Origin: Clostridia bacterium | GTDB taxonomy: Bacteria; Bacillota; Clostridia; Peptostreptococcales; JAAYPU01 | Direction of reading: 5' to 3' | DNA length: 64,000 bases | Assembly: GCA_016278615.1 (NCBI GenBank) | Contig: JADQBM010000037.1 | Span: forward strand, 12,939 to 76,938 | Shown here: positions 3,612 through 45,722 of the stretch, piece after piece | How the letters are laid out: every line of letters begins with the position of its first letter | Numbering within the stretch: position 1 is the stretch's first letter | The notes under the pieces: generated by a model | Databases searched by the model: none | Told to the model about the DNA's origin: nothing | What the model saw: the letters and a program-made list of their open reading frames with translations, nothing else | Position numbers and translations under genes: made by a program

Positions 3612-3757
3612 AAATTCTTCTCCCCTTTTTTATACATATTGTAACCTAAGAACTCTCTTAGATATTTCTTTACTTATACAAATAATACTATCATAAAAAC
3701 TGTCATGAATTCAACTCAAGTTGTTATCTTTTGTCAAAAAAACGGAACTTTAGGCTA

Positions 3758-5488
3758 TTATTTGATTTTAATATATATTCTTGATTCTAAATAACCCAAC
3801 GTCATTGTATCTGTGCCTTTTATGTTTTCCCCATTCAAATTGTAGAACATAAAGGTGATGGATACTTTCTCATTGCCATCCATTATCATAATATCTTCTA
3901 TTTTTTCAGGTTGTTTCCCTTGTCTCATAAGATGATATTGTCCCGCCAAATCTTCCATATTGACCTCATAGACCTTCTCATCCTTTAGTAAAATTTCGAA
4001 TTCTTTAGATACCTCTGAATAGAGCACATGCATATCACCACTTCGAGAATCAATGCCTCTTTCCAAATCAGCAACATAATCATATTCAGAAATATCAAAC
4101 AGTGAAGCTCTTTCACTGAAGTAGTAATTAATATACTCCATATCCCTTATATAATTCACGTATTCAAAACCGAAAACATCTTTCATCTGTTCTAAATCAA
4201 AATCCTGAGGCAATACCCTTATATCTTTAAGCTCATGATTATATTCAAAATAGCGTAATATCTCACTAATCGCTTTTTCTTCCTCTTCTGAAAGCTTTTG
4301 ACTGGGCTTAATAATCTCATCACCATTTAACATACCATATTCTTCTAAAAGTGATTCGAATCTATTATTTTGACTCCATATAGAAACAGAAATCCCACTC
4401 AAAGGGCCGTAAGCTGAAATAAGCAATATAACTGTAGCTGAAATCACAACGATAATAGATTTATAATGCTTCGAAAAAATACCATAAACCATATTCCCCA
4501 AAATCCATAATCCAGAAATGATAACACCATACCTAGGGATTGTAATGCCATACTCATTTACCCGAATGGCAATGGCAAAAAACATAATACCTAAAGGAAT
4601 TAGTATGACCATAGGGAAATACTTTGAGAAATGCTTAGCCCATTTATTTTCATCTCCGAGTGAACGCACAAAGAATAATGAAATGGTGCTAATGATACCA
4701 TACCAAAGAACAAGGTTACCAACCAACCCTCTGGGCCACTCCCACGTCAGAATCATTTTTGCAAAATAGGCATATAAAATTACTGTATATATTGAAATAA
4801 GCGGTAAGATAATATATAAAAAAAGCGTACGAAGTACCTTTGGATAATTTATAATTTTCATGTCTTCATCATAAGTTGGAATGTTGCCTAAAAAATATGG
4901 AACTGCAAATAAACCCGCAACCAAAATAAAAATATCCATATATATTTTACTGCTTATTGTTAGATCAAAGAGTTGTTCAACTGTAAATATCGTTGCGATA
5001 ATCCCTAAGAATAATACCAACGAATATAGACAGGTAATAAAAAACCTTGTGATCAGATTCATCACATACAGAGAATAGTTCTTTCTCTTAAGAAAATATG
5101 GCACCAAGGTAAAAACTAAGTACAAACTTGCGCTCAGAGTGAGATATCTGAACATGAAGACTTGGTCAGGTTCTTTTGGAATAAAAAGATAATAGACCAA
5201 AAGAAAGCCTAAAACAGCGATATCCACTACATACCTTCTGGAGATTTTGTTCTTGAATCGCTCAAAGTACAGCTTAATGGTAGCAAATAATGGTAATCCT
5301 AATGCAAGGCTCAAAAGAACTTTATATAAAATGTCTTCCAATTCACTGTTAATAGACTCCATATGGTTCAACAAAATTGCAATGATAACAATGGATACAG
5401 AAACCATTAGAGTCTCCGGAAACCGCTTTGCACTATCCCTTAGCTTTAATAATATGACTCCAATAATGGTTTCTAATTTTTTAATCAA
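3758..5488 (-). CDS. DUF4153-like polytopic membrane protein
   Basis: Many TM segments; RFP, YPKVL..LFLYI..P, RVNEYGIT..RY and GPLS..S..SQ..R patterns. Confidence 0.75.
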   Translation of the reverse strand: MIKKLETIIGVILLKLRDSAKRFPETLMVSVSIVIIAILLNHMESINSELEDILYKVLLSLALGLPLFATIKLYFERFKNKISRRYVVDIAVLGFLLVYYLFIPKEPDQVFMFRYLTLSASLYLVFTLVPYFLKRKNYSLYVMNLITRFFITCLYSLVLFLGIIATIFTVEQLFDLTISSKIYMDIFILVAGLFAVPYFLGNIPTYDEDMKIINYPKVLRTLFLYIILPLISIYTVILYAYFAKMILTWEWPRGLVGNLVLWYGIISTISLFFVRSLGDENKWAKHFSKYFPMVILIPLGIMFFAIAIRVNEYGITIPRYGVIISGLWILGNMVYGIFSKHYKSIIVVISATVILLISAYGPLSGISVSIWSQNNRFESLLEEYGMLNGDEIIKPSQKLSEEEEKAISEILRYFEYNHELKDIRVLPQDFDLEQMKDVFGFEYVNYIRDMEYINYYFSERASLFDISEYDYVADLERGIDSRSGDMHVLYSEVSKEFEILLKDEKVYEVNMEDLAGQYHLMRQGKQPEKIEDIMIMDGNEKVSITFMFYNLNGENIKGTDTMTLGYLESRIYIKIK

Positions 5489-5574
5489 TCTAATCCCTCA
5501 CTTCTTTCTGCAAATCTTACTACTATTTAATATTACCAAAATTATGGAATACTTACTATAAATATTCTAAAGAA

Positions 5575-6036
5575 TTATTCTGAGTCATTTTGTATTATGG
5601 GTTCACCTTCTGTGATTTCTATAGGCTGTACGCTATGGATTCTAAGGACAACATAAGGATAAGTGATAACTTGTAAAGTCATGCTCTCCTTATTTGGCTT
5701 TGTTTCATTATATAAAATAGATATGCTGCCTTCTACATCTTTAACATGATCAATATGAATGCCATAACCTCCTGTATTCCTTTCACCAAGACCGATAAAA
5801 ACGTACTGAGAATTTTCGAATAAAATAACCTGAGCATTTCCCTCTGTCATCTCTTTCTCTATAATGCTCGCCATCTCTTCCGGAATGTCTTCATCTTCGA
5901 CAATAGAATACGTTATATCATTCCCTATAACACCATCATCCTTCCCTTCCGCTTCAGCACAGCCTGTACCGAACACCCCTAAACTCATTAAAAGGATAAA
6001 TAGTAACATTCTATTTTTCATAATCATAACCCCCAT
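5575..6036 (-). CDS. PrcB C-terminal domain lipoprotein
   Basis: Lipobox-like GTGC; LGERNTGGYGI and QVITYPYVV motifs. Confidence 0.8.
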   Translation of the reverse strand: MGVMIMKNRMLLFILLMSLGVFGTGCAEAEGKDDGVIGNDITYSIVEDEDIPEEMASIIEKEMTEGNAQVILFENSQYVFIGLGERNTGGYGIHIDHVKDVEGSISILYNETKPNKESMTLQVITYPYVVLRIHSVQPIEITEGEPIIQNDSE

Positions 6037-6175
6037 TTTACATTTTTCTCCTTTGACGCCCCAAATACATTTTTGTTCCCTTCTTGCTTTTGTTCATCCC
6101 CTTTATCTTGCTCCCTTGTTTGAATAAAAAAATAACCTAAACAATATTCTGTTTAAGCTATTTTATATATACTTC

Positions 6176-6904
6176 TTAACGGCATTCCACTACGATGCCT
6201 TCTAAAAGTGGCTCTCCACGAATATCTCTTCTAACGTTCATGGGTGCAATGTTGACTGTATTCTCTGGCATATCAAATGGATTTATCTCAACGACTCTTG
6301 TTCCAGCCCAAGTCGGTTCTTGCTCATAAGGTGCTGTCCGACTGAGTATAGCAGAATACCTTTCTTCACCCATCAGTAGCGTTCCCACATAAGCATCAAA
6401 ATCTCCAATATTTTGAGGCGTTGGCAGCCCTAAAGCAGCAAAGGTTATCGCATAATTCCCATCGCCTGCTGGATGAATATATACAACCCCTCCTGTTATT
6501 TCAGGAAATGCCGTTGGGGTATCTGAAGTTCGATTGAGTACAATGGCACATCCTTTGTATCGCTCATCCGCTGCAGGAATACAGATGCGCTGCCCAACGA
6601 ATAATATATTTGGATTCGTAATTTGTGGGTTGACAAACAATATCTGAGCAAGAGGCACTCTAAATTTTTGAGCAATGATATTTAAATTCTCACCACTTTT
6701 AATGGTATAAAACTCACCACTGCATCTAATGGGCACACAAATTTGCTGCCCGATATATAAAATGTTTGGATTCGAAATCTGTGGATTTGCCAATATTAAG
6801 TCTTGTATTGAAACATTATATTGAGCTGCTATACCATAAAAAGTATCCCCAGCTTTAATAAAATAAGTAACACCTTGACATTCCCTCTGTAAATAATGAA
6901 CCAT
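6176..6904 (-). CDS. Two-LysM protein, SafA/ExsA-like spore assembly protein
   Basis: Two LysM repeats with ANPQISNPNILYIGQQICVP-type ends. Confidence 0.8.
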   Translation of the reverse strand: MVHYLQRECQGVTYFIKAGDTFYGIAAQYNVSIQDLILANPQISNPNILYIGQQICVPIRCSGEFYTIKSGENLNIIAQKFRVPLAQILFVNPQITNPNILFVGQRICIPAADERYKGCAIVLNRTSDTPTAFPEITGGVVYIHPAGDGNYAITFAALGLPTPQNIGDFDAYVGTLLMGEERYSAILSRTAPYEQEPTWAGTRVVEINPFDMPENTVNIAPMNVRRDIRGEPLLEGIVVECR

Positions 6905-6972
6905 CTTTCCATCTCCTTAAAAAAAATTCCTGCTAATAGCATGATATTCAAATTAGTAAGATAGTGATACAG

Positions 6973-7028
6973 GAGATTAGAGATTAGAGATTAGGTGGCA
7001 GGGGACAGGGGACTGAAAGCTGAAATAT
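6973..7028. repeat. Degenerate 7-bp tandem array
   Basis: GAGATTA x3, GGTGGCA, GGGGACA, GGGGACT, GAAAGCT, GAAATAT in one 7-nt register. Confidence 0.6.
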
Positions 7029-7176
7029 TAAGGATAAGTGTAAGTTAAATACTATGTGTTAAATAATAAGTATTGAGTGAGTGAAAATCTAATGAAAACC
7101 TGTTTTAAAGAACTTATTATTTATTTTTTAATATTCAACTTACACTACTCTGAAAGAGTTTATTTACACTTAATAC

Positions 7177-8301
7177 TTAGAGCGTAATTTTATTTAAGTC
7201 TGTAAGATACTCTACAACCTCTTGGGGTTTTCCTCTAAAAACAATTTTCTCTACGTTTTTTTGTATCTGGTATTCATACATAGGGTCATAATACTCTTTT
7301 AAGAGCATGTCTATCCATTTTTCGTGAGAAACAGAATTTCCGAAAATCATTTGTTGGTTATAGGCAAATTCAAATAAATTCACGAGGCGTTTGTAACGTT
7401 CTCCACCCAGACGCTTTTTCAGCTTACTCATACTACTGCTTATATACGCATACCACTCTGATAGGCCCTGTTCTTCTCCAAATGTTGTAACATATTCCTT
7501 CTGAGATTGAATCACATATTCATTCATGGTGTTTTGTACACGCTGATCAAAAGGCAATTCCAATAATACCAATTCTCCAAGATTAAAATACTGATATAAT
7601 GGTTCTGGAATACGGCACTTGCCTATATTGGTCCCTTCATCTTCTAATATCATATACTTATACGCTTCTTGTTCATGCTGAATCAAGGCATAAGCCAAAT
7701 CATTTTCAAAGCTGATTTGAGTCGGTTGGGGTGTAAGTTGCCCACCGAAAGAAGATCCTCGGTGATTGGAAATACCTTCCAAATCAATAGAATTATTAAG
7801 ACTTTTTAATAATTGAGTTTTGCCAGAACCAGTGTATCCCCCTAATAAAACAGGGATACTCTTTTGCATGTCAGGGTTTAGAGCGTTAAGAAGAAAATTT
7901 CTAAAAGCTTTATACCCCCCCTCCAGTCTCATCACTTTCTTCCCAGTTGCCTCAAAAATCCATCTTTGACTTATTTGTGACCGTAGGCCGCCTCTAAAAC
8001 AATAAAGCATACCCTCTGGGTTTTGGGTAATAAAAGAAACCCAAGCTTCAATTCTTTCTTGCCTCTTTTCCCCTGTTACCAATTCATGTCCCAACTTAAC
8101 AGCTTCGTCACTTCCTTTTTTTGCATAGCAAGTACCTACCAAATGTCTCTCTTCATCATTCATAAGAGGTAAATTGACAGCATTAATAAAAGCACCCTGC
8201 TTGAATTCCAAGGGTGCACGCACATCTATAAGGGGGATTTCCCCGGTAACAATTCCTTTAAAATCTCTATTAGTATGGGTTATCATATTAAACACTTCCA
8301 T
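7177..8301 (-). CDS. selU: tRNA 2-selenouridine synthase
   Basis: Rhodanese domain IDVRAP.EF and YCFRGGLRS; P-loop GYTGSGKT; HRGSSFG; YYDPMY; TAATG overlap with selD. Confidence 0.95.
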   Translation of the reverse strand: MEVFNMITHTNRDFKGIVTGEIPLIDVRAPLEFKQGAFINAVNLPLMNDEERHLVGTCYAKKGSDEAVKLGHELVTGEKRQERIEAWVSFITQNPEGMLYCFRGGLRSQISQRWIFEATGKKVMRLEGGYKAFRNFLLNALNPDMQKSIPVLLGGYTGSGKTQLLKSLNNSIDLEGISNHRGSSFGGQLTPQPTQISFENDLAYALIQHEQEAYKYMILEDEGTNIGKCRIPEPLYQYFNLGELVLLELPFDQRVQNTMNEYVIQSQKEYVTTFGEEQGLSEWYAYISSSMSKLKKRLGGERYKRLVNLFEFAYNQQMIFGNSVSHEKWIDMLLKEYYDPMYEYQIQKNVEKIVFRGKPQEVVEYLTDLNKITL

Positions 8302-9332
8302 TATTTTACTGTAATGAGCTTCTCATTTCTTTCACAGGTTTGTCCGATGCTACTAAGGGATAAACCTGCTGCAGTAGTTACATTTATAAATTCCGGAACA
8401 CTTTCCTTTCGAACAATCACCAAAAGCCCACCGGAAGTTTGGGCATCACATAAAATCCATTTCTGCTCTTCCGTCATTTCATTGATGGCATGCCCATAGC
8501 TTTTAAAGTTATTCCTTGTCCCTCCTGAAATACAATCCATTTCAAAATATTTTTTTGTATTCGGTAGCAATGGCACTTGGTCATACCAAATAGTAGCAGA
8601 AATTCCGCTGCCTTCACAAATTTCACCCAAATGCCCCAGCAATCCAAACCCTGTCACGTCTGTTAGCGCCACAACGCCATTTATAGTCGAAATCTCCGTG
8701 CCAATTTTATTAAGGGTGCACATGGCTTCAATCGCTACATCTATGTGAGTGGGTTCAATTTTCTTTCTTTTTTGTGCCGTGGTTAAAATACCGATACCAA
8801 GTGGTTTGGTTAAAAATATTTCGCATTCAGGTTCTGCTTTATTGTTTTGCTTTAACTGTTTGTTTTGTACAATGCCAGTTACTGCCAGTCCAAAGATGGG
8901 TTCCGGCGCATCAATGGAATGCCCACCGGCAAGAGGAATCCCTGCATCACCACATGCCGCGCGGCCACCTTCCAAAACTTGTCTCGCCACATCTGTTGAA
9001 AGTAGCTCTAAAGGCCATCCTAAAATTGCAATGGCCATAAGAGGTTTGCCACCCATAGCATAAATATCGCTGATGGCATTGGTAGCAGCAATCTTACCAA
9101 AAGTGAAGGGGTCATCCACGATGGGCATAAAAAAATCCGTCGTACTGAGAATCGAGGTCCCATTTCCCAAATCATAAGCAGCCGCATCATCTTTACTACT
9201 GTTGCCCACCAGTAGGTTTGGATATTTAATAATATCCTTATTTGTTTTTATTATGGTTTCTAATATCTCTGGAGATATTTTACACCCACATCCCGCACCG
9301 TGACTGTATTCAGTTAATTTTATGTTCTTCAT
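8301..9332 (-). CDS. selD: Selenide, water dikinase (Cys-type)
   Basis: [47 protein letters not shown]. Confidence 0.97.
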
Positions 9333-9463
9333 TAATTACATCCTCTTCGCTATTAAATTTGATAATAAATATTATATCATATTCGTATTACTCTATTCTA
9401 TAAACCCATATATAAAATCAACGAACACAAATAGAATTAAAAATCTTATCTATCCTAAAATAG

Positions 9464-9499
9464 AAAAAGAGACGCGTCAGAATTTTGACATGTCTCTTT
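9464..9499 (-). terminator. Intrinsic terminator after the CoA-transferase genes
   Basis: AAAGAGAC.CGTCA...TGACA.GTCTCTTT hairpin with a T run on the minus strand. Confidence 0.7.
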
Positions 9500-9550
9500 G
9501 AACTTAAAAAACAATATATTTTTTTCCATTATGGATTGAGGTATATATAT

Positions 9551-10204
9551 CTACTTTGTCATTTCTTTCAACTTTGAGCTCACCATTATAGTTGCTTCTG
9601 TCGCCTCCATGACCTGGTCAATTGAATAGTCTGAATTTATTTCAGTGAGCACCAGTCCAGATGGTGTAACTTCTATAACACCCATTTCTGTAACAATCAT
9701 ATCTACAACCCTTAATGCTGTATATGGAAGGGTACACTTTTTTAGAATTTTGTGCTTACCCTTATTGGTGTGTTGCATGGCAATGATAACCTTTTTAGCT
9801 CCTACCACAAGATCCATAGCGCCACCCATTCCCGGAAGCATAACACCAGGAATGATCCAATTGGCGAGATTTCCTTCTTCATCTACTTGGAGCGCTCCTA
9901 AAACCGTTATATCAACATGGTGCCCCCTAATAATTCCAAAAGAAGTTGCACTATCAAAAAATGAAGCGCCAGATTTAATGGTTACATATTGGGCGCCTGC
10001 ATTGATTAAATCCACATCTTCTTGGCCCTTTTCAGGAGCAGGACCCAGCCCTAAAAATCCATTCTCGGACTGAAACGTGATATCATAATCATCAGGAATA
10101 TAGTTGGCAACTTTTGTAGGGAGACCAATGCCAAGGTTCACAACATCTCCATCCTTTAACTCTTTTGCCACTCTTTTAGCGATCATTTCCTTTACATCTG
10201 CCAT
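9551..10204 (-). CDS. atoA: Butyrate/acetate:acetoacetate CoA-transferase beta subunit
   Basis: VNLGIGLPT, catalytic [13 protein letters not shown]. Confidence 0.93.
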
Positions 10205-10860
10205 GGTTTCTCGCCTCCTACAATTACATCTACAAATATTCCAGGTGTCATGACATTATTAGGGTCTATTTCTCCAACTTCTACAATCTTTTCTGTCGCA
10301 ACTATAACTGTATCTGCCGCCATTGCCATTAATGGGTTAAAGTTCCTTGTGGATTCGTTGTACCAGACATTCCCTTTTTTATCTGTAACCGATCCCCTAA
10401 TCAATGCAAAATCTGCTTTCAATGGCATTTCTAATAGATACTCTTTTCCTTCTATTGTTATGACTTGTTTGCCCTCGGCTACAATGGTCCCAACTCCTGT
10501 AGGGGTTAAAACGCCACCTAACCCAGTCCCTCCTGCTCTTATCCTTTCAGCAAGTGTTCCTTGTGGCACTAAAATAACTTCCAATTCTCCACGATCCATT
10601 TGTTGTCCTACCTCAGGATTTAAGCCGACATGGGAAGCAATTAAAGTTTTGACCTGTTTATTGGCAATGAGTTTTGCAACGCCTCTTTTAGGATAAGCCC
10701 CATCGTTACAGATGATAACCAAATCCTTTATTCCCTTTAAAACCAGAGCATCCATTAAAATTTCAGGCGTACCTGTTCCCATGAAGCCTCCCACCATAAT
10801 GACAGATCCATCTTTGATAGGAGCTATGGCTTCTTCAAGGGTCTTTATCTTTTTCTGCAT
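10192..10860 (-). CDS. atoD: Butyrate/acetate:acetoacetate CoA-transferase alpha subunit
   Basis: [30 protein letters not shown]. Confidence 0.93.
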
Positions 10861-10955
10861 ACTTTGCTCCCCCCTTTATATTTATAATACTTTAATAATT
10901 GGAAAAACCGTTCAAATAAATTTAATTTCTTTTTTGACATATTATTATACGACAT

Positions 10956-11795
10956 TTATTCGCATTCTCTTTTTCTTAGACTTAGAATTCTTCTTGCTTC
11001 TTCAGGTGTTGCAATATCTCTTTTTAGAATATTAGCTAATTTGACAACTTTCTCCACTAAGGCCCCATTACTTCTGGCTAGTACGCCTTTTTCTAAATAG
11101 AGATTATCCTCAAACCCTACTCTTACATGCCCACCCATCACAATAGCATTTGCAGCCAAATCAAATGCGCCTCTACCTATTCCAGTTGCACACCATGTAG
11201 CATCTTTTGGTAAAGATTCAACCATATAAACAAGATCCCTTGTTGTAGCAGTCATTGCACCGTTTACTCCAAGTACGATATTAAAATGCAAAGGCCCATC
11301 AATAAGACCCTTTTTATATAGTCTGAGTGCATTATCAATCATTCCTTTTTCAAAGCATTCCAGTTCTGGTTTAACCCCCAGTGTTTTCATTTTTTGTGCA
11401 AATGTATGATTCATGGTTTCTGTATTAACAAATATTAAATCGCCTCCGAAATTACATGTGCCACAGTCGAGTGTTGCAATTTCTGGTTTCAGATCAACCG
11501 GTTGTAGCCTCTCCTCTGCCGTCATACCAACAGCACCACCCGTGCTTGGTAAGATGATGACATCTGGACATGCTTTCCTAATAGCATCAATAGCTTCTTT
11601 AAATCTGCCCTTATCTTGGGTAGGGGTACCATCATCCCATCTGACATGCAGGTGTATAACAGCCGCTCCTGCATCATAAGCAGACTTTGCTTCTTTTATG
11701 ATTTCTTCAATTGTATATGGCACCGCTGGGTTCATTTCCTTTGTGACTTCTGCACCACAAATAGCAGTAGTTATAATTAACTTTTCCATCTTCAT
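10956..11795 (-). CDS. kce: 3-keto-5-aminohexanoate cleavage enzyme, copy 1
   Basis: LIITTAICGAE, IHLHVR, STGGAVG, RVGFEDN (BKACE family); adjacent to kal. Confidence 0.92.
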   Translation of the reverse strand: MKMEKLIITTAICGAEVTKEMNPAVPYTIEEIIKEAKSAYDAGAAVIHLHVRWDDGTPTQDKGRFKEAIDAIRKACPDVIILPSTGGAVGMTAEERLQPVDLKPEIATLDCGTCNFGGDLIFVNTETMNHTFAQKMKTLGVKPELECFEKGMIDNALRLYKKGLIDGPLHFNIVLGVNGAMTATTRDLVYMVESLPKDATWCATGIGRGAFDLAANAIVMGGHVRVGFEDNLYLEKGVLARSNGALVEKVVKLANILKRDIATPEEARRILSLRKRECE

Positions 11796-11834
11796 GCCCT
11801 TTCTTTCTCTTAGTCTAAAACGATTAGAAATTTA

Positions 11835-12227
11835 TTATTTTTTCCTTTGCTTATGTTCAGGAGTAACGCATGTTCCTTCTGCAATACATACAACGATTGG
11901 TTCCTCTAGAACATCACAAGCAGATTCACTTATATCTGTTCTTGGAACAATTATCTTTCTTGCTTCAAACTTAATTTTTCTAGATGTTCTTCCTGTTTCA
12001 ATAATTTCTCCGTAAGCTTCTATATAATCTCCCGCAAATACTGGCGCCTTAAATTCAATCATATTATAAGCTTTAAAAAGTCCTTCATCGCCATCCATTC
12101 TTATTAATAACTCTGTGGCTACGTCACCAAATAGCTGAAGCATCCTTGCCCCATCCACAAGACCTCCTCCATAATGTGCATCATGTGCTGACATTCTTAA
12201 TTTAATTAATGAAACTGCTTTTTTCAT
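11835..12227 (-). CDS. kal: 3-aminobutyryl-CoA ammonia-lyase
   Basis: [32 protein letters not shown] hotdog-fold motifs; start at ATG 12227 after GGGAGGA. Confidence 0.93.
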
Positions 12228-12340
12228 CTTTTCAATCCTCCCAATATAGCAATAGCACTTGTAATATATTTTGAAATCACATTTAGGATAATTAGATTCC
12301 TTCACCTTCTGTGCATAATATGTATCACATAATAATCATC

Positions 12341-13645
12341 TTAATCTATGAACATCAATGATAATGCTGGTATATAGGTAATTATCATTAATGCAAATAT
12401 TGACACTATGAAGAATGGTATAATGTATCTCATCATGCTTTCCATTTTTACTTTACCAACAGCCGAACCAACGAATAGATTGCATCCGTAAGGAGGTGTA
12501 CATAGTCCTATTGCAAGGTTAACAGTAATAATAATACCGAAGTGTACGGGATCAACACCATAACCAACAACTGCTGGAAGGAGTATTGGCGACATGACAA
12601 TAATAGCAGGAACCGTATCTAGGAAACAGCCAATTACAAGAAGTACCAAATTAATAAGTAAAAGCATCACATATTTATTGTCTGTACAGTTCATTAGCAT
12701 CTCATAGACCATCCTTGGTATTCCCGCGTGAGACAAATAAGTGGAAAATACTGTAGAATATCCTAAGAGAAATGATGTAATTCCATTTAATACAGCTGCA
12801 GCCAGAAACGTTTGATATAAACCTTTCAGTTTCATATCCTTATAGACAAATAAGCTTACGAAGATAGAATAAACTACAGAAATACATGCGGCTTCAGTAG
12901 GTGTGAATATACCGGAATAAATCCCTCCGAGTATAATAAATGGTGATAAAAGCGCCCAGAATCCATCCTTGAAGGATATTACAACCTCCTTTAGTCTGTT
13001 TAACACAAACTCCTTTAAAGGAACTTCCTTTGATACTTCCTGCTTATCCCCTATATTTAGTTTCTTACACATGAAGTAATTCATAAATAACAGAATGGTT
13101 CCAATAGTAATTCCGGGAACAATTCCTGCTAGGAATAAATCAGATATAGAAGTATTGGTCGTGGCCCCATATAGAACAAATCCTAAACTTGGAGGTATAA
13201 TTATGCCTATGATACCTGCAAAGCAAACCAGGGTAGTACAATAAGCAGCATTATAGCCCTTCTTCTTCATTTCAGGTATCATCATACTTCCAATTGCCGA
13301 TGTAGTAGCCATTCCTGAACCAGACAAAGCCCCGAAAAACATACATGCAAGTACGGATACAGCGCCAAGTCCACCCGTAACAAATCCGATTAACTTGTCA
13401 CAGAAATTAACTATCCTGGCTGCGATACCACCAGTAGACATGATAACGCCTGCCAACATAAAAAACGGTATTGCAAGTACTGTAAAGGAGTCAATTCCTG
13501 CGTAACAATATTGTGCAGTAATTACCATATCTATATTAGTAAAATAGTACAAAATAAGCATCGTAGCGCCACCGATGGCAAAACCTACTGGAACCCCTAA
13601 TAGTATAAATGAAAACAGGACAAAGAATAAAACTAATACTTGCAT
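12341..13645 (-). CDS. dctM: TRAP transporter large permease
   Basis: LAIPFFMLAG, IIIPPS, FTPTEAA, TPPYG motifs. Confidence 0.93.
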   Translation of the reverse strand: MQVLVLFFVLFSFILLGVPVGFAIGGATMLILYYFTNIDMVITAQYCYAGIDSFTVLAIPFFMLAGVIMSTGGIAARIVNFCDKLIGFVTGGLGAVSVLACMFFGALSGSGMATTSAIGSMMIPEMKKKGYNAAYCTTLVCFAGIIGIIIPPSLGFVLYGATTNTSISDLFLAGIVPGITIGTILLFMNYFMCKKLNIGDKQEVSKEVPLKEFVLNRLKEVVISFKDGFWALLSPFIILGGIYSGIFTPTEAACISVVYSIFVSLFVYKDMKLKGLYQTFLAAAVLNGITSFLLGYSTVFSTYLSHAGIPRMVYEMLMNCTDNKYVMLLLINLVLLVIGCFLDTVPAIIVMSPILLPAVVGYGVDPVHFGIIITVNLAIGLCTPPYGCNLFVGSAVGKVKMESMMRYIIPFFIVSIFALMIITYIPALSLMFID

Positions 13646-14148
13646 TACATATCCCTCCCTTCTTCAGGCTCACCTGCTTTAAAGTTTTTAATTGATTCCC
13701 AGATATAGCCTAACGATCTTAATGCCATGAGCGAGCATCCGATAGGGATTGCAATATAGCCCCAAGCAAGGCTTATTTGAAGACAAATAAATTTAGAACC
13801 TGCCCAGAATATACTCATATAGATACCGTAATAAATCGTAACAGCACAGATTCCAATAACAATAATTGAGGAAATAATATTTATAACTTGTGCCTTTTTA
13901 TAAGAAAATTTGTCTACGAGCATGGTTATCTTTATATGCTCTCCCCTCTTGGCACCAAGACTAATACCTATCCAAGTAAGCCATTCAAAGAGGAAACGTC
14001 CAAGCTCTTCTGACCAATATAAAGAATTATTAAAAACATACCTCATGATAACCTGAAGAAAAATATCTGCTACCAAAACTGCGAATATCGTTACCAAGAA
14101 TATTTCCTCAAAGTGATTATAAAAGTTTAGCAAGCGATTTTCTTTCAT
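13645..14148 (-). CDS. dctQ: TRAP transporter small permease
   Basis: QVIMRYVFN..LYWSEEL.R and HI motifs; 4 TM. Confidence 0.9.
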   Translation of the reverse strand: MKENRLLNFYNHFEEIFLVTIFAVLVADIFLQVIMRYVFNNSLYWSEELGRFLFEWLTWIGISLGAKRGEHIKITMLVDKFSYKKAQVINIISSIIVIGICAVTIYYGIYMSIFWAGSKFICLQISLAWGYIAIPIGCSLMALRSLGYIWESIKNFKAGEPEEGRDM

Positions 14149-14230
14149 CACTATCTCCAATTCTGATTTTATATCTAAAACATACGAATAATTGCCTTAA
14201 TAATACCATTATTTAGAAATATAAGAATAC

Positions 14231-14261
14231 ATCTGGGTCGAACTAAAGGTCCAACCCAGAT
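14231..14261 (-). promoter_or_regulatory. Intercistronic hairpin after dctP (stabilizer or partial terminator)
   Basis: ATCTGGGT...ACCCAGAT inverted repeat, no long U tract. Confidence 0.5.
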
Positions 14262-14316
14262 AGAATATTACAGATTGTTTTATTAATACATGACAAATGT
14301 TATTCAATACTTACAC

Positions 14317-15357
14317 TTATTTTCCTGCAGTCGCTAAGAAAGCATCAAATATTTCTGCACCTGTTCTTTCTCTTTGCATTTCATATACGCTTTCACATTC
14401 CATGTACAAAGCATCTTTTTCTTCTTTTGTTAATTCATAGACAGTTGCGCCAGCATCTAAGAAATTCTGAACATATACCTCTTCCAATGCTCTTTCATCT
14501 GCTCTTTGCATTTCACAAGTTTGCTTAATACCTTCTAAGAAAATGGGTTTGATATCTTCAGGCAGTGAGTCCATGAATTTTGTTGATGTCATAACAGTAT
14601 AAGGTGAACTTTGATGCTCTGTTAGTGTTACATATTGGGCATTTTCATAAAATTTGAAATCATTGAAGACACCTAATGAATGATCAAGTCCATCAATTGT
14701 GCCTTGTACAAGTGAAGTATAAACCTCGCCCCATGCCATAGGCGTTGGATTAGCACCAAGAGCCTTCCATATAGCAAGATTCATATCTGTTGGAGTAATA
14801 CGAAGCTTGTATCCTTTTAAGTCATCTGTATTATGATATACTTTTTCTGTGCTGATCAAAGACTTCATCCCATTGTACATGAAATCAAGGCAGTAATATC
14901 CGGAGTCTTCTAAAAGCTCGTTATAAAGATCAAGGCCACCTTTTTCAAAGCTACCAGTTACCCAATCATCATATGAATCATAGAGAAACGGTAGATCTAC
15001 AACGTCCAGCCTGTTACCAATGATAGATCCAGGCACGCCTGAAAGCCCAAAATAAATTTCAACTGTTCCAAGTAAAAGTCCCTTACACGCTTCTGGATCA
15101 TCCCCAAGTTGACCATCAGGGTAAACTTCAACTACAACTCTTCCGTCTGTCTGTTCTGCCATGTACTCTTTGAACCATTGGCAAGCAACATTTGTTGATC
15201 TACTACTTGTGTCTGTATTGCTGATTTTAATAACAATTGGCTCTTGGTTCTCAGAATCTGTGTTAGCGTCTTCGCCTCTTCCACTTGCACACCCCACTAC
15301 TGTTACTAAAAGTAGGGCAACAACCAGGATAATGGCCATTACTTTCTTGATTTTCAT
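14317..15357 (-). CDS. dctP: TRAP substrate-binding lipoprotein
   Basis: Lipobox VVGC; VYPDGQLG, DLKGYKLR, LGANPTPMAWGEVYTSLVQGTIDG. Confidence 0.92.
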   Translation of the reverse strand: MKIKKVMAIILVVALLLVTVVGCASGRGEDANTDSENQEPIVIKISNTDTSSRSTNVACQWFKEYMAEQTDGRVVVEVYPDGQLGDDPEACKGLLLGTVEIYFGLSGVPGSIIGNRLDVVDLPFLYDSYDDWVTGSFEKGGLDLYNELLEDSGYYCLDFMYNGMKSLISTEKVYHNTDDLKGYKLRITPTDMNLAIWKALGANPTPMAWGEVYTSLVQGTIDGLDHSLGVFNDFKFYENAQYVTLTEHQSSPYTVMTSTKFMDSLPEDIKPIFLEGIKQTCEMQRADERALEEVYVQNFLDAGATVYELTKEEKDALYMECESVYEMQRERTGAEIFDAFLATAGK

Positions 15358-15452: not shown

Positions 15453-16493
15453 CTACGGTTTACAATATCGGTTTATAAAATATTCTCTCAGCTTTTGATT
15501 ATTTCTAATAATATCAAAAGTAATCTCTGCATGACCCGGATAGTAGCCATTTCCAATAATCATCGAAACGTATTTTTTTATTCCCTCAGCTCCTAATGAA
15601 GCTTTCACAAAATCTGTGCTCATACTAAAAAAATAAATCTTTCCAATATCCTTAGTTACCAGGATAGTTGAGAGTTCAGTATCGGGAACATTAACGGTAC
15701 TTACAGTAAAATCTGCCAGACGTCCGTCCATTGCCTCCATATATCTGTTATAAGTATCTATAGGTTCCTGCCCATTCACCTGCAACACGACATCTGCAAT
15801 TTCCAGCTCCCTTACAATGTCACACTGCACTTTAGAATGTTCTAGACAAACAACTTTTCCATTTGGTGCTACTCGTTTCTTTGCTTCTGCCAGACAAAGT
15901 AGCCCAGCCTTACCAGCACCTATTATGACAACCACATCCCCAGGCTTTGCATTCATAGCCACCTGCGCAGGAGCGCCAGCTACATCCATAATGGCCAAAC
16001 TTAAGTTTTGACCTAAATCTTCAGGAATTTTTGTATAGATTCCGCTTTCAAACAAAATAGCATTTGCTTTGCAAAACACCTGCTCAGTATCCACATCAAT
16101 ATGATGAATTTCAGAAATTCTCAATGGCGTAAGGGATAATGAAACCAATGTTGCAATCTTATCTCCTGGCTGGATATCTATCTTGCCTTTTAAATCTTCA
16201 CCAATTTCTTTTACGATGCCAATAAGCATACCTCCCGACTTTGTTACCGGGTCCTGGAATTTGCCTCTTTCTTCAACAATTTCTAATATGGCTTGTTTGA
16301 TTTTGTCTATGTTTCTACCGCATTCATTCTTAATCCGCCCAAACGCAGTAGAGGTAGGTTGAAGTGCAATAACATCAATTAGTATTTCATTTGAAAAAAT
16401 TTTAGGATCATTGTTAATCTTTTCTGCAGCCTGTGGTAGTAAACCTTTAGGTGTAATGACACGATGGCTGCCGTACTGATTACCTTTCATCAC
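15453..16493 (-). CDS. kdd: L-erythro-3,5-diaminohexanoate dehydrogenase-like enzyme (divergent)
   Basis: YGSHRVI.P.G.LPQ, SGGMLIG, ATLVSLSLTPL, DVAGAPAQV, YFFSM, LGAEG, IGNGY. Confidence 0.88.
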   Translation of the reverse strand: MMKGNQYGSHRVITPKGLLPQAAEKINNDPKIFSNEILIDVIALQPTSTAFGRIKNECGRNIDKIKQAILEIVEERGKFQDPVTKSGGMLIGIVKEIGEDLKGKIDIQPGDKIATLVSLSLTPLRISEIHHIDVDTEQVFCKANAILFESGIYTKIPEDLGQNLSLAIMDVAGAPAQVAMNAKPGDVVVIIGAGKAGLLCLAEAKKRVAPNGKVVCLEHSKVQCDIVRELEIADVVLQVNGQEPIDTYNRYMEAMDGRLADFTVSTVNVPDTELSTILVTKDIGKIYFFSMSTDFVKASLGAEGIKKYVSMIIGNGYYPGHAEITFDIIRNNQKLREYFINRYCKP

Positions 16494-16531: not shown

Positions 16532-16548
16532 AGCAAGTAATGTGCCAA
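16532..16548 (-). promoter_or_regulatory. Sigma54 (-24/-12) promoter of the kdd-TRAP-kal-kce operon
   Basis: Minus strand TTGGCACATTACTTGCT matches TGGCAC-N5-TTGC, about 40 nt upstream of kdd. Confidence 0.92.
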
Positions 16549-16786
16549 GCAGCTGTTTTATTTTGTTCTACAACACTCTTATTATATTTAATCTCATTTC
16601 TTTTCTTAGTTTTGATTGCATATTGTACACTTCCCTTTCTCTTCTTTGTTATATTGCAACAAAAAACGAAAATTCTTTTTATTATAAGAATTTTCGTTAC
16701 ATATTTTAATACTTTAGCTCTGCGGTCCAAGATTTCTATTTTTTCGAATTGTATCATGTCTATATTAAATAATTATTACTATTTTT

Positions 16787-16822
16787 TGTATCGATTTTGA
16801 CTCATGACGCAATAACGACTCA
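16787..16822. promoter_or_regulatory. Two tandem candidate enhancer (UAS) boxes
   Basis: TGTATC-N6-GACTCA (16787-16804) and TGACGC-N6-GACTCA (16805-16822), imperfect versions of TGAGTC-N6-GACTCA. Confidence 0.65.
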
Positions 16823-16957: not shown

Positions 16958-16975
16958 TGAAGCATTATCGACTCA
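16958..16975. promoter_or_regulatory. Third candidate enhancer box
   Basis: TGAAGC-ATTATC-GACTCA, same spacing as the other two. Confidence 0.6.
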
Positions 16976-16976
16976 A

Positions 16977-19049
16977 TTATAAACCAAACTTATTCAACCT
17001 TCTGGCTATGCTAGATTGCGTCATCCCCAAGGCACTTGCCATTTTTCTTGTTGTTTTATACTTTCTTTTGTATTGTATTAGAACCTCTTTTTCTATTCTC
17101 TGCATTGCATCTGTTAAACTTTCACCTTCAACAATACTTATTTCTTTTTGCTGCAATCCTAATTCTTTTTGATTGGAATGAAAACAACTTCTCAATGCCC
17201 TTACATCTTCAATCTTAACAATATTGTTATCGGTTGAAATCAGCAATCCCTGAATAAAATTTTGTAATTCTCTGATGTTTCCCATCCATTCATACTCTTT
17301 TAGATGTTCTACGGCCATAGGTTCTATGGTTTTAGATATATTAAATTTATGATTATATTCATCAATAAAAACTTTAATCAACAAACCTATATCTTCATAC
17401 CTTTCACTCAAAGCAGGTATAAAGATTGGAAAAACATTCAGCCGGTAATACAAATCTTCTCTAAAATCACCACATTTGACCATTTTTGCTAAATCTTTAT
17501 TTGTTGCTGCAATGATTCGAACATCGGTTTTAATGGGTGTTATCCCCCCAATTCTATATATTTCATTTTCCTGCAATACCCGTAATAGTTTTGATTGCAA
17601 TAATATTGGCAACTCACTTATTTCATCAAGAAACAGAATGCCCTTTTGTGCAATTTCCCAAATTCCTTTTTTCCCTTTAGGATCCGCTCCTGTAAAGGCA
17701 CCTTTTTCATAGCCAAATAACTCTGACTCCAATAAATGATCTGGTATCGATGCACAATTGATTTTAACAAATGGAGAATTATTTCTTTTACTATTATTGT
17801 ATATTATTTGTGCAATAATTTCTTTTCCAGTACCTGATTCTCCGTATATCATAACTGTACATTCATATTTTGCCACCTTAAGAGCATTTTGTAGCACTTT
17901 TCTCATGGCCGCACTTTCAAAAACAAGATTTATCCCATTATGCTTTTTTGTATAATCTAAAAAGTGTTCAATTGATTTTTTATCGCTATTTTTATAGTTA
18001 TTTAAAAATACGCCCCGATTATCAAGGCCTTCTTGTAATAACTCCCGCAATTTATCATATTTTCGTAATAATTGTAGAGTTAATTCAGCATGTCCTTCTA
18101 CATACCCTTTATAAGGAATAATGGTGATATCTTTACCTATTGATTCTGCTGAAAGACCAGCTACATTGCTGTCGCTCCTTAAGCTTGCGAAAAAGACTGT
18201 CCCCTTATTTTTTACTAAAAATAGGGGTGTTATTTCTGCATATGCTTCTTCGGAACAATTAATTACAATATCAAATAAATTATTTTCTTCGAAATACCTA
18301 TTATAAAAATCTAACGTGTTCCTGATATCGTAGCACAATATTTCATCAAATACATCGCTTTCCTCTGCCTTTTCTCTTCCTTCTTCAGAATTAATTACAC
18401 CTACGATTTTACCCTTTTTTCCCATCTTTTCTCTGGCTGCAAAACCACACAGTAATCCCAACTTGGTCCATGCACCTAAAATAATCACTTTATCTTCAGG
18501 TTCTACTATCCGAGTGGTTTCTGCTGGGGCTCCAGCTTCATCCCAAGCACTTATTAGCACTTTCAAAGGTAAATCATCTGGTTTTTGTGAAATAAGCGAG
18601 GACTCAAACATAATAGCTTGTCCTTTAATAGAAATTTGGGCGAACCCAATATCTATTCCTATAATTCTTTCAATCTTCAACGGGGTGGTTGAAAGGGAAA
18701 CCAAGGATATAATTTCATCTCCAATTTGCAACCCATGCTTATTGGTGTATGCTTTCCCCATTTCTTTTACTCTACCATAAAGCATCCCCCCGGTTCCTGT
18801 TATGGGATTATGTAATTTTCCTCTGCTATTTACAATCTCAAGGATCCTATCTGCTATTTTTTTCTTTTCTCCATTGGTCTCCTCAAGTATCTGTGCAAAA
18901 CTTACAAAATTAATGTTTAGTATTTCAACGTCAACTAATAATTCATTTTCATTAATTTCCATGGTATTATCTAACTTCCATGCTGTTTGCAGAAAAGAAT
19001 TTTTGGGTTCCAATACTCTATTAAATCCATACTTGTCAAATCTCTTCAA
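16977..19049 (-). CDS. Sigma54-dependent activator with N-terminal Kdd-like domain
   Basis: About aa 1-340 parallel Kdd (GKLHNPITGTGGML, LVSLSTTPL, DEAGAP, LSAE.IGKD); then GESGTGKE, GAFTGA, LFLDEI, FREDLYYRL and a C-terminal HTH. Confidence 0.92.
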   Translation of the reverse strand: MKRFDKYGFNRVLEPKNSFLQTAWKLDNTMEINENELLVDVEILNINFVSFAQILEETNGEKKKIADRILEIVNSRGKLHNPITGTGGMLYGRVKEMGKAYTNKHGLQIGDEIISLVSLSTTPLKIERIIGIDIGFAQISIKGQAIMFESSLISQKPDDLPLKVLISAWDEAGAPAETTRIVEPEDKVIILGAWTKLGLLCGFAAREKMGKKGKIVGVINSEEGREKAEESDVFDEILCYDIRNTLDFYNRYFEENNLFDIVINCSEEAYAEITPLFLVKNKGTVFFASLRSDSNVAGLSAESIGKDITIIPYKGYVEGHAELTLQLLRKYDKLRELLQEGLDNRGVFLNNYKNSDKKSIEHFLDYTKKHNGINLVFESAAMRKVLQNALKVAKYECTVMIYGESGTGKEIIAQIIYNNSKRNNSPFVKINCASIPDHLLESELFGYEKGAFTGADPKGKKGIWEIAQKGILFLDEISELPILLQSKLLRVLQENEIYRIGGITPIKTDVRIIAATNKDLAKMVKCGDFREDLYYRLNVFPIFIPALSERYEDIGLLIKVFIDEYNHKFNISKTIEPMAVEHLKEYEWMGNIRELQNFIQGLLISTDNNIVKIEDVRALRSCFHSNQKELGLQQKEISIVEGESLTDAMQRIEKEVLIQYKRKYKTTRKMASALGMTQSSIARRLNKFGL

Positions 19050-19061: not shown

Positions 19062-20435
19062 CTAATCCAGCAATCCTGGCGCCACTTCCCCAATAACCGG
19101 TTTCATTTCAATCAAAGATTCCTCTATGGCTATGACTGCAAAATCAATATCATTTTCAGTCATAGCAGTGGACATACAATACATGCCACGTTGGGCACAC
19201 AATACCCCTTTATCAAGTAAGCTTAAGAATAACAAGGAATTCAGGCCTTCGAATGATGTAGCAACGCCTCTATATTCTTCAATCTTTTTATTACTGAAAA
19301 TAATATTATAAATGGACCCAATGCCATAAAGTTGAATATTTAACCCGATTCTTTCAAACATCTTCGTAACATCATTTTTAAATTTTGTTCCCAATTTATT
19401 AACGTAATCAATTTTCTCTTGATTGTAGTCCTTCATGGCGGCTGCTCCAGCGGACATAGAAATCGCATTTCCATTAAAAGTGCCTGAATGATACATGATT
19501 TTATTGTTAGGATTAAAAATATCCATTATTTCCCTTTTGCCACCAAATCCTCCAATAGGGAGTCCTCCCCCTATTATTTTCCCAAATGAAGTTAAATCCG
19601 GTTCAATATTAAATTGTTTTTGTCCCCCACCATAGGAGAGCCTCGCGGTGACCACCTCATCAAAAATAAGGATAATTTTATAATGCTTTGTAATTTCCCT
19701 AACAAATTCTAAATATTCATTGGTTGCAACAATTTGACCGGCAGAGCTCATAATAGGTTCAATAATAAAAGCTGCAATTTGTTCATGATTTTTCTCTATA
19801 ACTTTTTTTGTTGCTTCAATATTATTAAAGGATACCACCAAAACATCCTTTAAAGAATTCTTTGAAACCCCTTTGCTATCTGCAATGGCCTTTATATTAT
19901 GGATGCTTCCTGATTTTTTTAGGTCTGGATCTACATTCGCATCAAAAACATCCGTGGTTCCATGATACCCACCTTCAACTTTTACTATTTTTTGTCTATT
20001 TGTATAAGCGCGTGCACCTCTGAGGGCGTGCATATTGGCTTCCGTTCCAGAATTAGCGAAGCGCACTAAGTCTACCGATTTAAACCTATTCACTAATATC
20101 TCAGCAAGTTCTATTTGCTGCTTTACCGGTGCCGTATAGGCACTTCCAACTTGAATCTGCTCACATACTGCTTTTGCAGTTGGTTTGTGTCCATGTCCGT
20201 GAATGAGAGAAGTATAGTTGTTATCAAAGTCTACGAGCTTATTATTGTCTGCATCAAATAAATAAGCACCTTCTCCTTTTACTATAAAGTGAGGGTAAGG
20301 TTTAAAAAAAGTAAATGTTCGGGTATCTCCACCTGGCATAACATGGCAGGCTCTCTCATGTAATTTTTTTGACTCCTTTCTCTTGCTTTCATATTTATCA
20401 GTAATCATTTTTATGTACTTGTCTTTTTCCTTCAT
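19062..20435 (-). CDS. Class III PLP aminotransferase, HemL-like; candidate 3-aminobutyryl-CoA aminotransferase (Kat-like)
   Basis: RFANSGTEA, GGYHG, IFDEV, FGKIIGGGLPIG (PLP lysine), HSGTFNGN; context next to kce. Confidence 0.8.
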   Translation of the reverse strand: MKEKDKYIKMITDKYESKRKESKKLHERACHVMPGGDTRTFTFFKPYPHFIVKGEGAYLFDADNNKLVDFDNNYTSLIHGHGHKPTAKAVCEQIQVGSAYTAPVKQQIELAEILVNRFKSVDLVRFANSGTEANMHALRGARAYTNRQKIVKVEGGYHGTTDVFDANVDPDLKKSGSIHNIKAIADSKGVSKNSLKDVLVVSFNNIEATKKVIEKNHEQIAAFIIEPIMSSAGQIVATNEYLEFVREITKHYKIILIFDEVVTARLSYGGGQKQFNIEPDLTSFGKIIGGGLPIGGFGGKREIMDIFNPNNKIMYHSGTFNGNAISMSAGAAAMKDYNQEKIDYVNKLGTKFKNDVTKMFERIGLNIQLYGIGSIYNIIFSNKKIEEYRGVATSFEGLNSLLFLSLLDKGVLCAQRGMYCMSTAMTENDIDFAVIAIEESLIEMKPVIGEVAPGLLD

Positions 20436-20449
20436 CCATATGCCCCCAT

Positions 20450-21280
20450 CTATTTTTGTTTTTCCAACCTTAGGATTCTTCTTGCCTCTTCAGGTGTTGC
20501 AATATCCCTCTTCAAAATACCAGCTAACTTCACAACCTTTTCTACTAAAACCCCATTGCTTTTCGCCAATACACCTTTTTCTAAATAAAGATTATCCTCA
20601 AAGCCTACTCTTACATGTCCACCCATGACCATAGCAACAGCAGCAATATCAAATTCACTTTTTCCTATTCCAGTTGCGCACCATGTAGCCTCTTTCGGTA
20701 GAGACCCAACCATATAAACAAGGTCTCTTATGGTCGCAGCCATGGCACCATTTACCCCAAGAACAATGTTAAAGTGTAAAGGGTCCTCTAAAAGACCTTT
20801 TTTATATGATTTAAGTGCATTATCAATCATACCTTTTTCAAAACATTCAAGTTCTGGTTTAACACCTAAATCTTTCATTTTCTTTGCAAATGTATGAATC
20901 ATGTCCTCTGTATTGACAAATATTGAATCCCCAAAATTACATGTTCCGCAATCAAGGGAAGCTATTTCAGGTTTCAACTCAATGGGCTGTAGCCTTTCTT
21001 CAGCTGTCATTCCAATGGCCCCTCCTGTACTAGGTAAAATAATAACATCTGGACATGCTTCCTTAATGGCATCAAAAGCTTCTTTAAACCTACCTTTATC
21101 TTGAGTAGGCGTACCATCGTCCCATCTCACATGTAGGTGTATGACAGCGGCTCCTGCATCATAGGCAGATTTTGCTTCTTTAGCTATTTCTTCAATGGTA
21201 TAAGGCACCGAAGGATTCATTTCCTTTGTGACCTCTGCACCTGAAATCGCCGCCGTAATAATTAATTTTTCCATTCCCAT
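20450..21280 (-). CDS. kce: 3-keto-5-aminohexanoate cleavage enzyme, copy 2
   Basis: Colinear and highly similar to 10956..11795. Confidence 0.92.
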   Translation of the reverse strand: MGMEKLIITAAISGAEVTKEMNPSVPYTIEEIAKEAKSAYDAGAAVIHLHVRWDDGTPTQDKGRFKEAFDAIKEACPDVIILPSTGGAIGMTAEERLQPIELKPEIASLDCGTCNFGDSIFVNTEDMIHTFAKKMKDLGVKPELECFEKGMIDNALKSYKKGLLEDPLHFNIVLGVNGAMAATIRDLVYMVGSLPKEATWCATGIGKSEFDIAAVAMVMGGHVRVGFEDNLYLEKGVLAKSNGVLVEKVVKLAGILKRDIATPEEARRILRLEKQK

Positions 21281-21554
21281 GTCCTCTCTTTCCTTTATTT
21301 AGATTCACATGTTCCTAATAATACACATGACAATAATTCGTTGATAAAAAACATTCTCTAAACATATCTTATAGTCATTTTTTAGACTTAACAATATCAT
21401 ATAACAATTTTTCTAAAATTGGTAGAATCTAAGAAAAGCTGTAAGAGCGTTTTTATTGGTAACACTCACTTTTTATCTTTCATATATTAGTCTTGTGAAA
21501 GATATTTTCTATTCGCTAAATTGAATAAATGATAAAGAGGAGGATATCAAAAGA

Positions 21555-43956: not shown

Positions 43957-43984
43957 TACAATGAGAATTTCCTCATCACAGGTA

Positions 43985-45684: not shown

Positions 45685-45722
45685 ATAAATCAATCAAAAA
45701 TTTATAATATCAATTAAATATT

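Follow-up and report, generated by a model that had tools for sequence, protein, structure and literature searches.

A sigma-54 enhancer-binding protein that may use an ancient Kdd-type dehydrogenase fold as its ligand sensor

Can a whole catabolic enzyme fold serve as the signal input of a sigma-54 activator? Modular signal input is a textbook property of these activators, and few kinds of input domain are known: the ligand-sensing bacterial enhancer-binding proteins (bEBPs) TyrR, NorR, XylR/DmpR and PrpR carry PAS, GAF, ACT, V4R or PrpR_N inputs. The question is raised by a gene in a 64,000-nucleotide stretch of a Clostridia bacterium genome (contig JADQBM010000037.1, positions 12,939 to 76,938; the window), which encodes a regulator of 690 aa in 690 open codons. 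A first-pass annotation, made from the DNA letters alone, described its N-terminal ~340 aa as colinear with the L-erythro-3,5-diaminohexanoate dehydrogenase (Kdd) encoded next door and as fused to an intact AAA+ domain (GAFTGA) and a helix-turn-helix (HTH). Both halves of that description held. Residues 5-336 of the regulator align with residues 5-337 of the neighbouring Kdd with 126/334 identities (38%), an E value of 3e-68 and no large gaps, and the output domains and their motifs were confirmed. The gene and its parts lie as follows.

16977..19049, minus strand: gene of the Kdd-domain sigma-54 enhancer-binding protein
18030..19049, minus strand: N-terminal Kdd-fold sensor domain, residues 1-340, placed by the Kdd alignment, the Pfam KDD_N record and the fold match
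18531..18542, minus strand: DEAG, residues 170-173, with E171 as the sensor-clade signature where enzymes have V or I
18456..18476, minus strand: dinucleotide loop GAWTKLG, residues 192-198, with Thr in place of the middle Gly
17925..18029, minus strand: linker, residues 341-375, within the predicted long helix 332-369, with a predicted local distance difference test (pLDDT) score of about 60
17196..17924, minus strand: sigma-54 AAA+ core and lid, residues 376-618 (Sigma54_activat 376-542, AAA_lid_14 549-618)
16980..17123, minus strand: C-terminal HTH_50 DNA-binding domain, residues 643-690 (46.7 bits against a cut-off of 27)

The reading frame starts with TTG, preceded by TAGGAGGA at a distance of seven bases, and homologues share the start residue (MKKFDKYGF...). 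Pfam KDD_N (PF26370.1) is on record for the database protein identical to the window regulator (P0004). In the output half, Sigma54_activat (PF00158) scored 233 bits, and the AAA+ motifs are intact, with Walker A GESGTGKE at 403, GAFTGA at 450, Walker B LFLDE at 472 and the arginine finger REDLYYR at 530. On every sequence criterion examined, the regulator is a member of the bEBP family. The best NCBIfam match of the output half was PrdR (NF041552; 321.4 bits over residues 371-660), which resembles the regulator in its layout of AAA+ and C-terminal HTH and in the regulation of amino-acid fermentation. However, 321.4 bits is far below the cut-off of 795, and the match covered model positions 265-547 of 577, leaving the first 264, the PrdR input region, unmatched. 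As for the N-terminal half, the regulator scored 197.2 bits against the Kdd equivalog NF052381, under the cut-off of 200, whereas the neighbouring Kdd scored 230.1. Given this score, the altered glycine loop and a place on the opposite side of the tree from the enzymes (below), the regulator falls outside the Kdd enzyme equivalog as far as its sequence tells.

Upon modeling of the sensor domain alone with AlphaFold2, we obtained a pLDDT of 95.3, and the best solved matches of the model were seven listed chains of 3,5-DAHDHcca, the solved Kdd (7dl0/7dl3/7dl7/7dl1), with template-modeling (TM) scores of 0.81-0.91; other dehydrogenases reached about 0.5. By this prediction the sensor domain is a full Kdd fold with both lobes. 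The likeness to the solved enzyme (7DL0/7DL1/7DL3/7DL7) spans the entire N-domain (residues 6-340 against 7-348, E 1.6e-61) and includes the 7-residue loop form GAxGKxG, the equivalents of E310 and G323, and R11/E36/K78/T84. The regulator differs from it in the AAA+ and HTH fusion, its position on the non-enzyme side of the tree, E171, Tyr at G314, Ala at F289 and Thr at a loop Gly. When the window protein is compared with its orthologue in a metagenome-assembled genome (MAG) titled Anaerovorax odorimutans (locus L041), whose regulator is 84% identical, the N-domain shows 84% identity and the AAA+ core 84%, with nonsynonymous divergence (dN) of 0.082 against 0.086 and saturated synonymous divergence (dS). 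The complete Kdd fold is under purifying selection as strong as that on the ATPase core.

The annotation had named an assembly artefact as what would undo the fusion. A 502-nt contig from run X3, which belongs to the same study as the possible source, spans 17574-18075 over the domain junction with zero differences. The fusion also recurs at loci in nine further genomes or MAGs, and a search limited to proteins of 379-1208 aa found 167 clusters (90% identity) that share the N-domain at fusion length; an artefact is thereby ruled out. Of the 120 clusters listed, 107 measure 640-780 aa, and nearly all combine KDD_N, Sigma54_activat, AAA_lid_14 and HTH_50. The hosts named for fusion clusters are Clostridia, Bacilli and Desulfobacterota. 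Stand-alone enzymes form at least 7,994 clusters. In even samples that both contain the window genome, the Kdd-family gene was present in 29/399 genomes at class level and 82/401 at phylum level, and the long fused frame in 5/399 and 3/401, respectively; these are sample-based counts.

We then asked where the sensor domains stand relative to the enzymes, using trees made by a quick method with no mixture model and left unrooted. In a tree of 115 rows, all 39 fusion N-domains and one 363-aa row stood apart from 75 enzyme-length rows, which formed an enzyme-only clade with support of 100 that also contains the seven kdd genes adjoining fusions. Because all fusions stand apart from the enzymes, the split is old and, on this tree, single. 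The first-pass idea of a duplicated pathway enzyme therefore stands as to a Kdd paralogue and fails as to a copy of the adjoining gene: a recent local duplication of kdd is ruled out by the trees. The direction from enzyme to sensor is inferred from the far wider spread of the enzymes. Fusions that retain the loop (GAxGKxG, loop-type) form a grade nearest the enzymes of 20 rows, the window protein among them, and fusions that have lost it form a long-branched clade of 20 rows (support 100) that includes two tandem paralogues from contig C19 of the window genome. The apparent trajectory is from enzyme to loop-retaining sensor to loop-less sensor.

How far, then, has the sensor domain departed from an enzyme? 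The change of DVAG to DEAG that had been read from the window alone proved to be clade-wide, since position 171 is the sole alignment column separating at least 80% of fusions from at least 90% of enzymes, with E in 33/39 and D in 3/39 fusions against V in 69/75 and I in 6/75 enzymes. The accompanying claim of a degenerate glycine loop is right for the window protein, where the middle Gly is Thr, and wrong for the loop-type members of the family: of 109 fusions, 109 retain the first loop glycine, 97 the second and 106 the third. Because the solved active Cloacimonas Kdd (7dl3) itself has the 7-residue loop GANGKSG, the W of GAWTKLG is only a variable position, and the one real deviation is the middle Gly to Thr. 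The GAWTKLG form occurs in 2/109 fusions, the window protein and its 84% orthologue, with GAWGKMG as the form in their nearest relatives. Of 68 diverse enzymes, 67 keep the middle Gly; with deeper sampling it is replaced by S, N, E or T in 7/20 loop-type fusion rows, window protein included, and all three glycines are gone in the 20-row loop-lost subclade. These replacements and losses suggest a relaxed need for dinucleotide, and judged from the alignments, the constraint on dinucleotide binding in the sensors is relaxed, not generally abolished. Passages of PMC9902596 describe E310 and G323 of Kdd as contacting the NADPH carboxamide. When mapped via alignment to the solved Kdd, the equivalents of these two residues are kept in 109/109 and 107/109 fusions, so the term 'pseudoenzyme', which the annotation had applied to the sensor, is not supported as written.

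Other columns differ in a manner that follows sensor type. Among loop-type representatives, G314 is Tyr in 14/14, F289 is Ala in 13/14 and D47 is Asn in 12/14, and D170 is retained in 12/14. The polar residues R11, E36, K78, T84, S118 and E302 are common to the enzymes and both kinds of sensor. We dropped four supposedly fusion-specific losses, D80N, K84G, Q79H and T46N: N, G and H are the majority states among 68 diverse enzymes, and it is the clade of the neighbouring Kdd that stands out. The acidic residue after strand beta-2, by which a preference for NAD over NADP might be told, is also missing from the solved NADPH enzyme.

A homodimer model of residues 1-378 gave an interface score (ipSAE) of 0.80 versus 0.00 for the best control, in a test whose mark was reached by 20/30 solved homomers and 1/23 single chains; the runs had at least 61% of contacts in common and a partner pLDDT of at least 80. 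As solved Kdd crystals exist, this pass may stem from resemblance to them. The confident interface comprises 292-307 and 310-318, where the sensor-specific substitutions (288-300, Y313) cluster, which in the model suggests a possible insulation of the sensor from its enzyme paralogue. The full-length model (pLDDT 85.9, predicted TM score 0.68) joins the last Kdd-fold helix to the AAA+ core by a single long helix, 332-369, at low confidence. NtrC1/DctD-type activators likewise have a dimeric input, a receiver, with a long helix to the AAA+ core, and the predicted helix 332-369 and predicted homodimer resemble this arrangement. They differ in that their receiver input is phosphorylated, whereas the linker helix here is of low confidence and absent from the confident dimer contacts.

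What might such a sensor control? The regulator sits between two gene groups of lysine-fermentation type, and the features that bear on its targets are these.

15453..16493, minus strand: kdd, stand-alone L-erythro-3,5-diaminohexanoate dehydrogenase (NCBIfam 230.1 bits, cut-off 200)
12341..15357, minus strand: TRAP transporter genes dctP (14317-15357), dctQ (13645-14160) and dctM (12341-13645)
9551..12305, minus strand: kal (11835-12305), kce2 (10956-11795) and CoA-transferase A (10192-10860) and B (9551-10204)
19062..21280, minus strand: upstream genes kce1 (20450-21280) and a HemL-like class III aminotransferase, possibly Kat-type (19062-20435)
16665..16698, minus strand: terminator-like hairpin with a 13-bp stem and T tail
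16532..16547, minus strand: sigma-54 -24/-12 promoter TGGCACATTACTTGCT, lying 430 nt beyond the regulator stop and about 40 nt short of the kdd start
16963..16974, minus strand: candidate enhancer half-site GAGTCGATAATG, of a motif defined post hoc
16810..16821, minus strand: candidate enhancer half-site GAGTCGTTATTG, in a block conserved with the 84% orthologue locus L041

The neighbouring Kdd matches solved 3,5-diaminohexanoate dehydrogenase 7dl3 (Cloacimonas) with an E value of 1.8e-85. The promoter at 16532-16547 is the sole zero-mismatch TGGCACN5TTGCW in the 64-kb window and lies between the regulator and the kdd-dctPQM-kal-kce-ctfAB operon. Upstream of kce1 (21281-21554), no sigma-54 promoter was found within two mismatches. 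The aminotransferase gene stops 12 nt before the regulator, and the hairpin at 16665-16698 probably ends a kce1-aminotransferase-EBP transcript. The window genome, which is 98.97% complete, encodes sigma-54 itself (Sigma54_DBD 216.5 bits; rpoN on contig C31 of the genome, G000).

The same arrangement recurred at all seven loop-retaining loci that we compared (the window, L041, L042, L062, L038, L037 and L099). In each, kdd follows the regulator, with kal and kce then following in most and TRAP genes in 4/7 (window, L041, L062, L038), and in each a -24/-12 element lies between regulator and kdd. The pattern GGCA[CT]N5[TA]TGC[TA] has eight matches in the 158,495 nt of both strands of the seven loci, and seven of the eight lie on the correct strand within the 2,418 nt of total regulator-kdd space. 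The half-site GANYCRWTAWTG, often as an inverted pair, occurs in 6/7 regulator-kdd regions, where it precedes the -24 element by 85 to 427 nt, and 11 of its 12 occurrences in 139.5 kb fall within those regions. Genome-wide, the strict half-site is found five times, and the three copies beyond the locus have no convincing placement before a sigma-54 element. A look for expression turned up no RNA run listed as containing the locus. A stand-alone kdd stands beside the fusion in eight loci (window, L041, L042, L062, L037, L038, L039, L099), which indicates that the enzyme activity is supplied separately.

Since the operon starts at Kdd and goes on to the later steps Kce, Kal and CoA-transferase together with an organic-acid importer, its gene content reads most simply as a module that takes up and breaks down 3,5-diaminohexanoate or a close relative, and that this compound would induce through a domain descended from the enzyme that binds it. 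kamD, for beta-lysine 5,6-aminomutase, was not found in the window genome with the PF09043 profile or by tblastn with a verified KamD (899 bits to PF09043); the profile search alone is weak, as it gave no match in any of 14 control genomes either. The organism may scavenge 3,5-diaminohexanoate or make it by some other route. According to passages of PMC3149608, Kat is the 3-aminobutyryl-CoA transaminase of a variant lysine pathway, and the HemL-like aminotransferase beside kce1 recalls it by its description.

Our favored interpretation, which we consider probable though well short of certain, is that the regulator is a one-component sigma-54 ligand sensor whose input is an ancient, diverged Kdd paralogue. 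A dimer of the sensor would bind the entry metabolite of the operon, (3S,5S)-3,5-diaminohexanoate or a very similar beta-amino acid, imported via the TRAP transporter, at a ligand site that would be the remodeled substrate pocket of the Kdd fold; NAD(P)(H) would probably be dispensable or merely auxiliary to sensing. Ligand would close the two-lobed dehydrogenase fold, and the signal would travel along the long helical linker. Once released, the AAA+ domains would assemble as a hexamer on GANYCRWTAWTG-type sites upstream, where their hydrolysis of ATP would serve to open the sigma-54 promoter. We lean slightly toward negative control by the unliganded sensor. Several points weigh against this scheme. 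Our choice between negative and positive control is guesswork. The remodeled pocket is read from alignment columns, and the glycine loop and both NADPH-amide contacts are retained in most relatives, which makes cofactor binding or even catalysis possible. With no kamD found in a genome that is 98.97% complete, the source of 3,5-diaminohexanoate would be external, and the nearest solved TRAP binding proteins bind varied acids and are too distant to name a substrate. Because the regions that yielded GANYCRWTAWTG are also those in which its copies were counted, it is a candidate enhancer, and the window half-sites precede the -24 element by 274 and 427 nt, separated from it by the terminator-like hairpin.

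Cofactor retention gives room for two of the alternatives. If the N-domain were an active NAD(P)-dependent dehydrogenase for 3,5-diaminohexanoate or another beta-amino acid, turnover or bound product might gate the ATPase; the kept loop glycines (109, 97 and 106 of 109) and E310/G323 equivalents (109 and 107 of 109), D170 in 12/14 loop-type representatives and the complete fold predicted at high confidence fit such a trigger enzyme. We nevertheless regard it as unlikely, given Thr at the middle Gly and E171 for the invariant V/I beside D170 in the window protein, the change of G314 to Tyr (14/14) and F289 to Ala (13/14) in loop-type representatives, the repeated erosion or loss of the loop in sensors, the separate kdd beside the fusion in eight loci and a score of 197.2 bits against the Kdd cut-off of 200. 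By analogy with Rex-like logic, in which a regulator reads the NAD(P)H/NAD(P)+ ratio, the Rossmann lobe could instead report that ratio with no pathway intermediate needed, as the loop and nicotinamide-amide contacts kept in most loop-type members would allow. This we think improbable: the middle Gly is lost in the window protein and six other of the 20 loop-type rows, a 20-row subclade lacks the loop and still consists of intact regulators, and the tight linkage to kdd or kamA operons is unlike a global redox signal.

A third possibility keeps ligand sensing and changes the ligand, to a TRAP-imported compound, beta-lysine, lysine or 3-aminobutyrate, with the pocket re-specified after the ancient split. 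The identity to Kdd of just 38% with many changed columns, loop-lost paralogues in the same genome that precede a kamA-like operon and not kdd, the failure to find kamD in the window genome and the varied acids taken by the nearest solved TRAP binding proteins all lend it some weight. We find it doubtful, since kdd is the first regulated gene in 7/7 loop-retaining loci, which fits induction by the Kdd substrate, and conserved polar residues are common to sensors and enzymes. That the sensor domain heterodimerises with stand-alone Kdd and so reads enzyme abundance or occupancy seems very improbable; dimerisation is predicted for Kdd-fold proteins and kdd is nearly always next to the fusion, but substitutions specific to the sensors (288-300, Y313) map to the predicted homodimer interface and look like insulation, and the loop-lost paralogues on C19 and in genome G163 have no adjacent kdd. 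Tentatively, and as a rather unlikely reading, we also entertain a coincidence detector, in which loop-retaining forms would bind NAD(P)H together with 3,5-diaminohexanoate, or slowly turn it over, and thereby couple substrate supply and redox state to the AAA+ motor, with loop-lost paralogues re-tuned to other beta-amino acids. If true, bEBPs would have an evolvable family of metabolite sensors that has so far escaped recognition.

The ligand-sensor interpretation that we prefer shares with the ligand-sensing bEBPs a one-component logic in which an N-terminal small-molecule sensor governs AAA+ assembly. Enzyme-derived sensor domains occur in other regulators, namely the MocR/GabR aminotransferase fold, ROK and PutA, and the likeness lies in the reuse of a pathway-type enzyme fold as an effector-binding module. 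Those regulators act at sigma-70 promoters with an HTH alone, whereas here the enzyme fold would drive a sigma-54 AAA+ motor. Among 490 clostridial EBPs, the inputs given in section 5 of PMC6615313 are PAS, GAF, HPr, PrpR_N, ACT, CBS, Fer4, Fe_hyd_lg_C, FeS, V4R and receiver domains; that section names no dehydrogenase or Kdd input, and the supplementary EBP tables might contain family members. In line with the annotation, which knew of no characterised example, we found no description of a Kdd-domain sigma-54 activator in full-text literature searches, including by terms within PMC6615313, PMC12316311 and PMC3149608. The domain combination is recorded in databases, and NCBI names such proteins generically, at times as the enzyme. 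The Kdd-sensor design is present in many bacteria and has apparently never been studied. If our interpretation is true, a whole medium-chain-dehydrogenase-type enzyme fold would be a new class of input domain and a natural example of a pathway enzyme turned sensor of its own pathway. It would also give the first regulatory handle on the lysine-fermentation clusters, butyrate- and ammonia-forming, of anaerobes, in a compact system of one regulator, one promoter and one candidate ligand.

The window genome holds three fused Kdd-domain genes and one enzyme gene. Two of the fusions are loop-lost sigma-54 activators in tandem on contig C19 (locus L006, 2258-4339 and 4369-6423), with loops GNDILSM and GSGMMTS. 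The promoter TGGCATAAAAGTTGCT at 6552-6567 of that locus lies 61 nt before a kamA-like gene; CoA-transferase, thiolase, class III aminotransferase and PhzF genes come next. The tandem paralogues might form mixed hexamers. In genome G421, an orthologue of the HemL-like aminotransferase gene has a -24/-12 element before it and a loop-lost Kdd-domain regulator alongside. The placement of loop-lost paralogues before these other operons, kamA-like and aminotransferase, suggests that the sensor has been re-tuned. The G421 aminotransferase orthologue (L098, 6114-7516, minus strand; 54-59% identical) is split into two overlapping open reading frames, which may reflect a frameshift or sequencing error.

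At a further locus (L039 in genome G217, 6516-8636), a loop-lost Kdd-domain regulator lies within a complete classical lysine-fermentation cluster of kal, two kdd, kamA, a MutS-like gene, kamD, kamE and CoA-transferase genes. This protein has GVERDEENG in place of GAFTGA and N for the Walker B D. TyrR acts without sigma-54, and by analogy the L039 regulator may do so as well. A more distant Kdd-domain regulator (L040 in genome G163, 2728-9617), with an N-domain 28% identical, adjoins the BREX genes BrxA and BrxC with no lysine-pathway gene nearby. Before the operons adjoining L039 and L040, we found no convincing -24/-12 element.

Several smaller observations concern the window and its genome. 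A one-mismatch sigma-54-like element, TGGCGCCAGGATTGCT, at 19069-19084 on the minus strand lies about 20 nt ahead of the regulator start, within the 3' end of the aminotransferase gene; this is too near for a normal leader, and the element is probably a chance match, with autoregulation as a possible reading. The 3.5-Mb window genome contains 33 strict TGGCA[CT]N5TTGC[AT] sites, and sigma-54 thus seems widely used in this organism. The two kce genes that flank the regulator, kce1 (20450-21280) and kce2 (10956-11795), are 85.6% identical, and a third copy, 42% identical, lies on contig C25. Anywhere in the window, no RNA element, riboswitches included, matched Rfam at gathering score. Directly downstream of the CoA-transferase genes, at 7177-9332 on the minus strand, are selD (selenide, water dikinase) and mnmH (tRNA 2-selenouridine synthase). 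Lastly, against a background GC of about 0.37, the window is AT-rich at 42001-46000 (GC 0.29-0.31) and GC-rich at 52001-54000 (GC 0.50).

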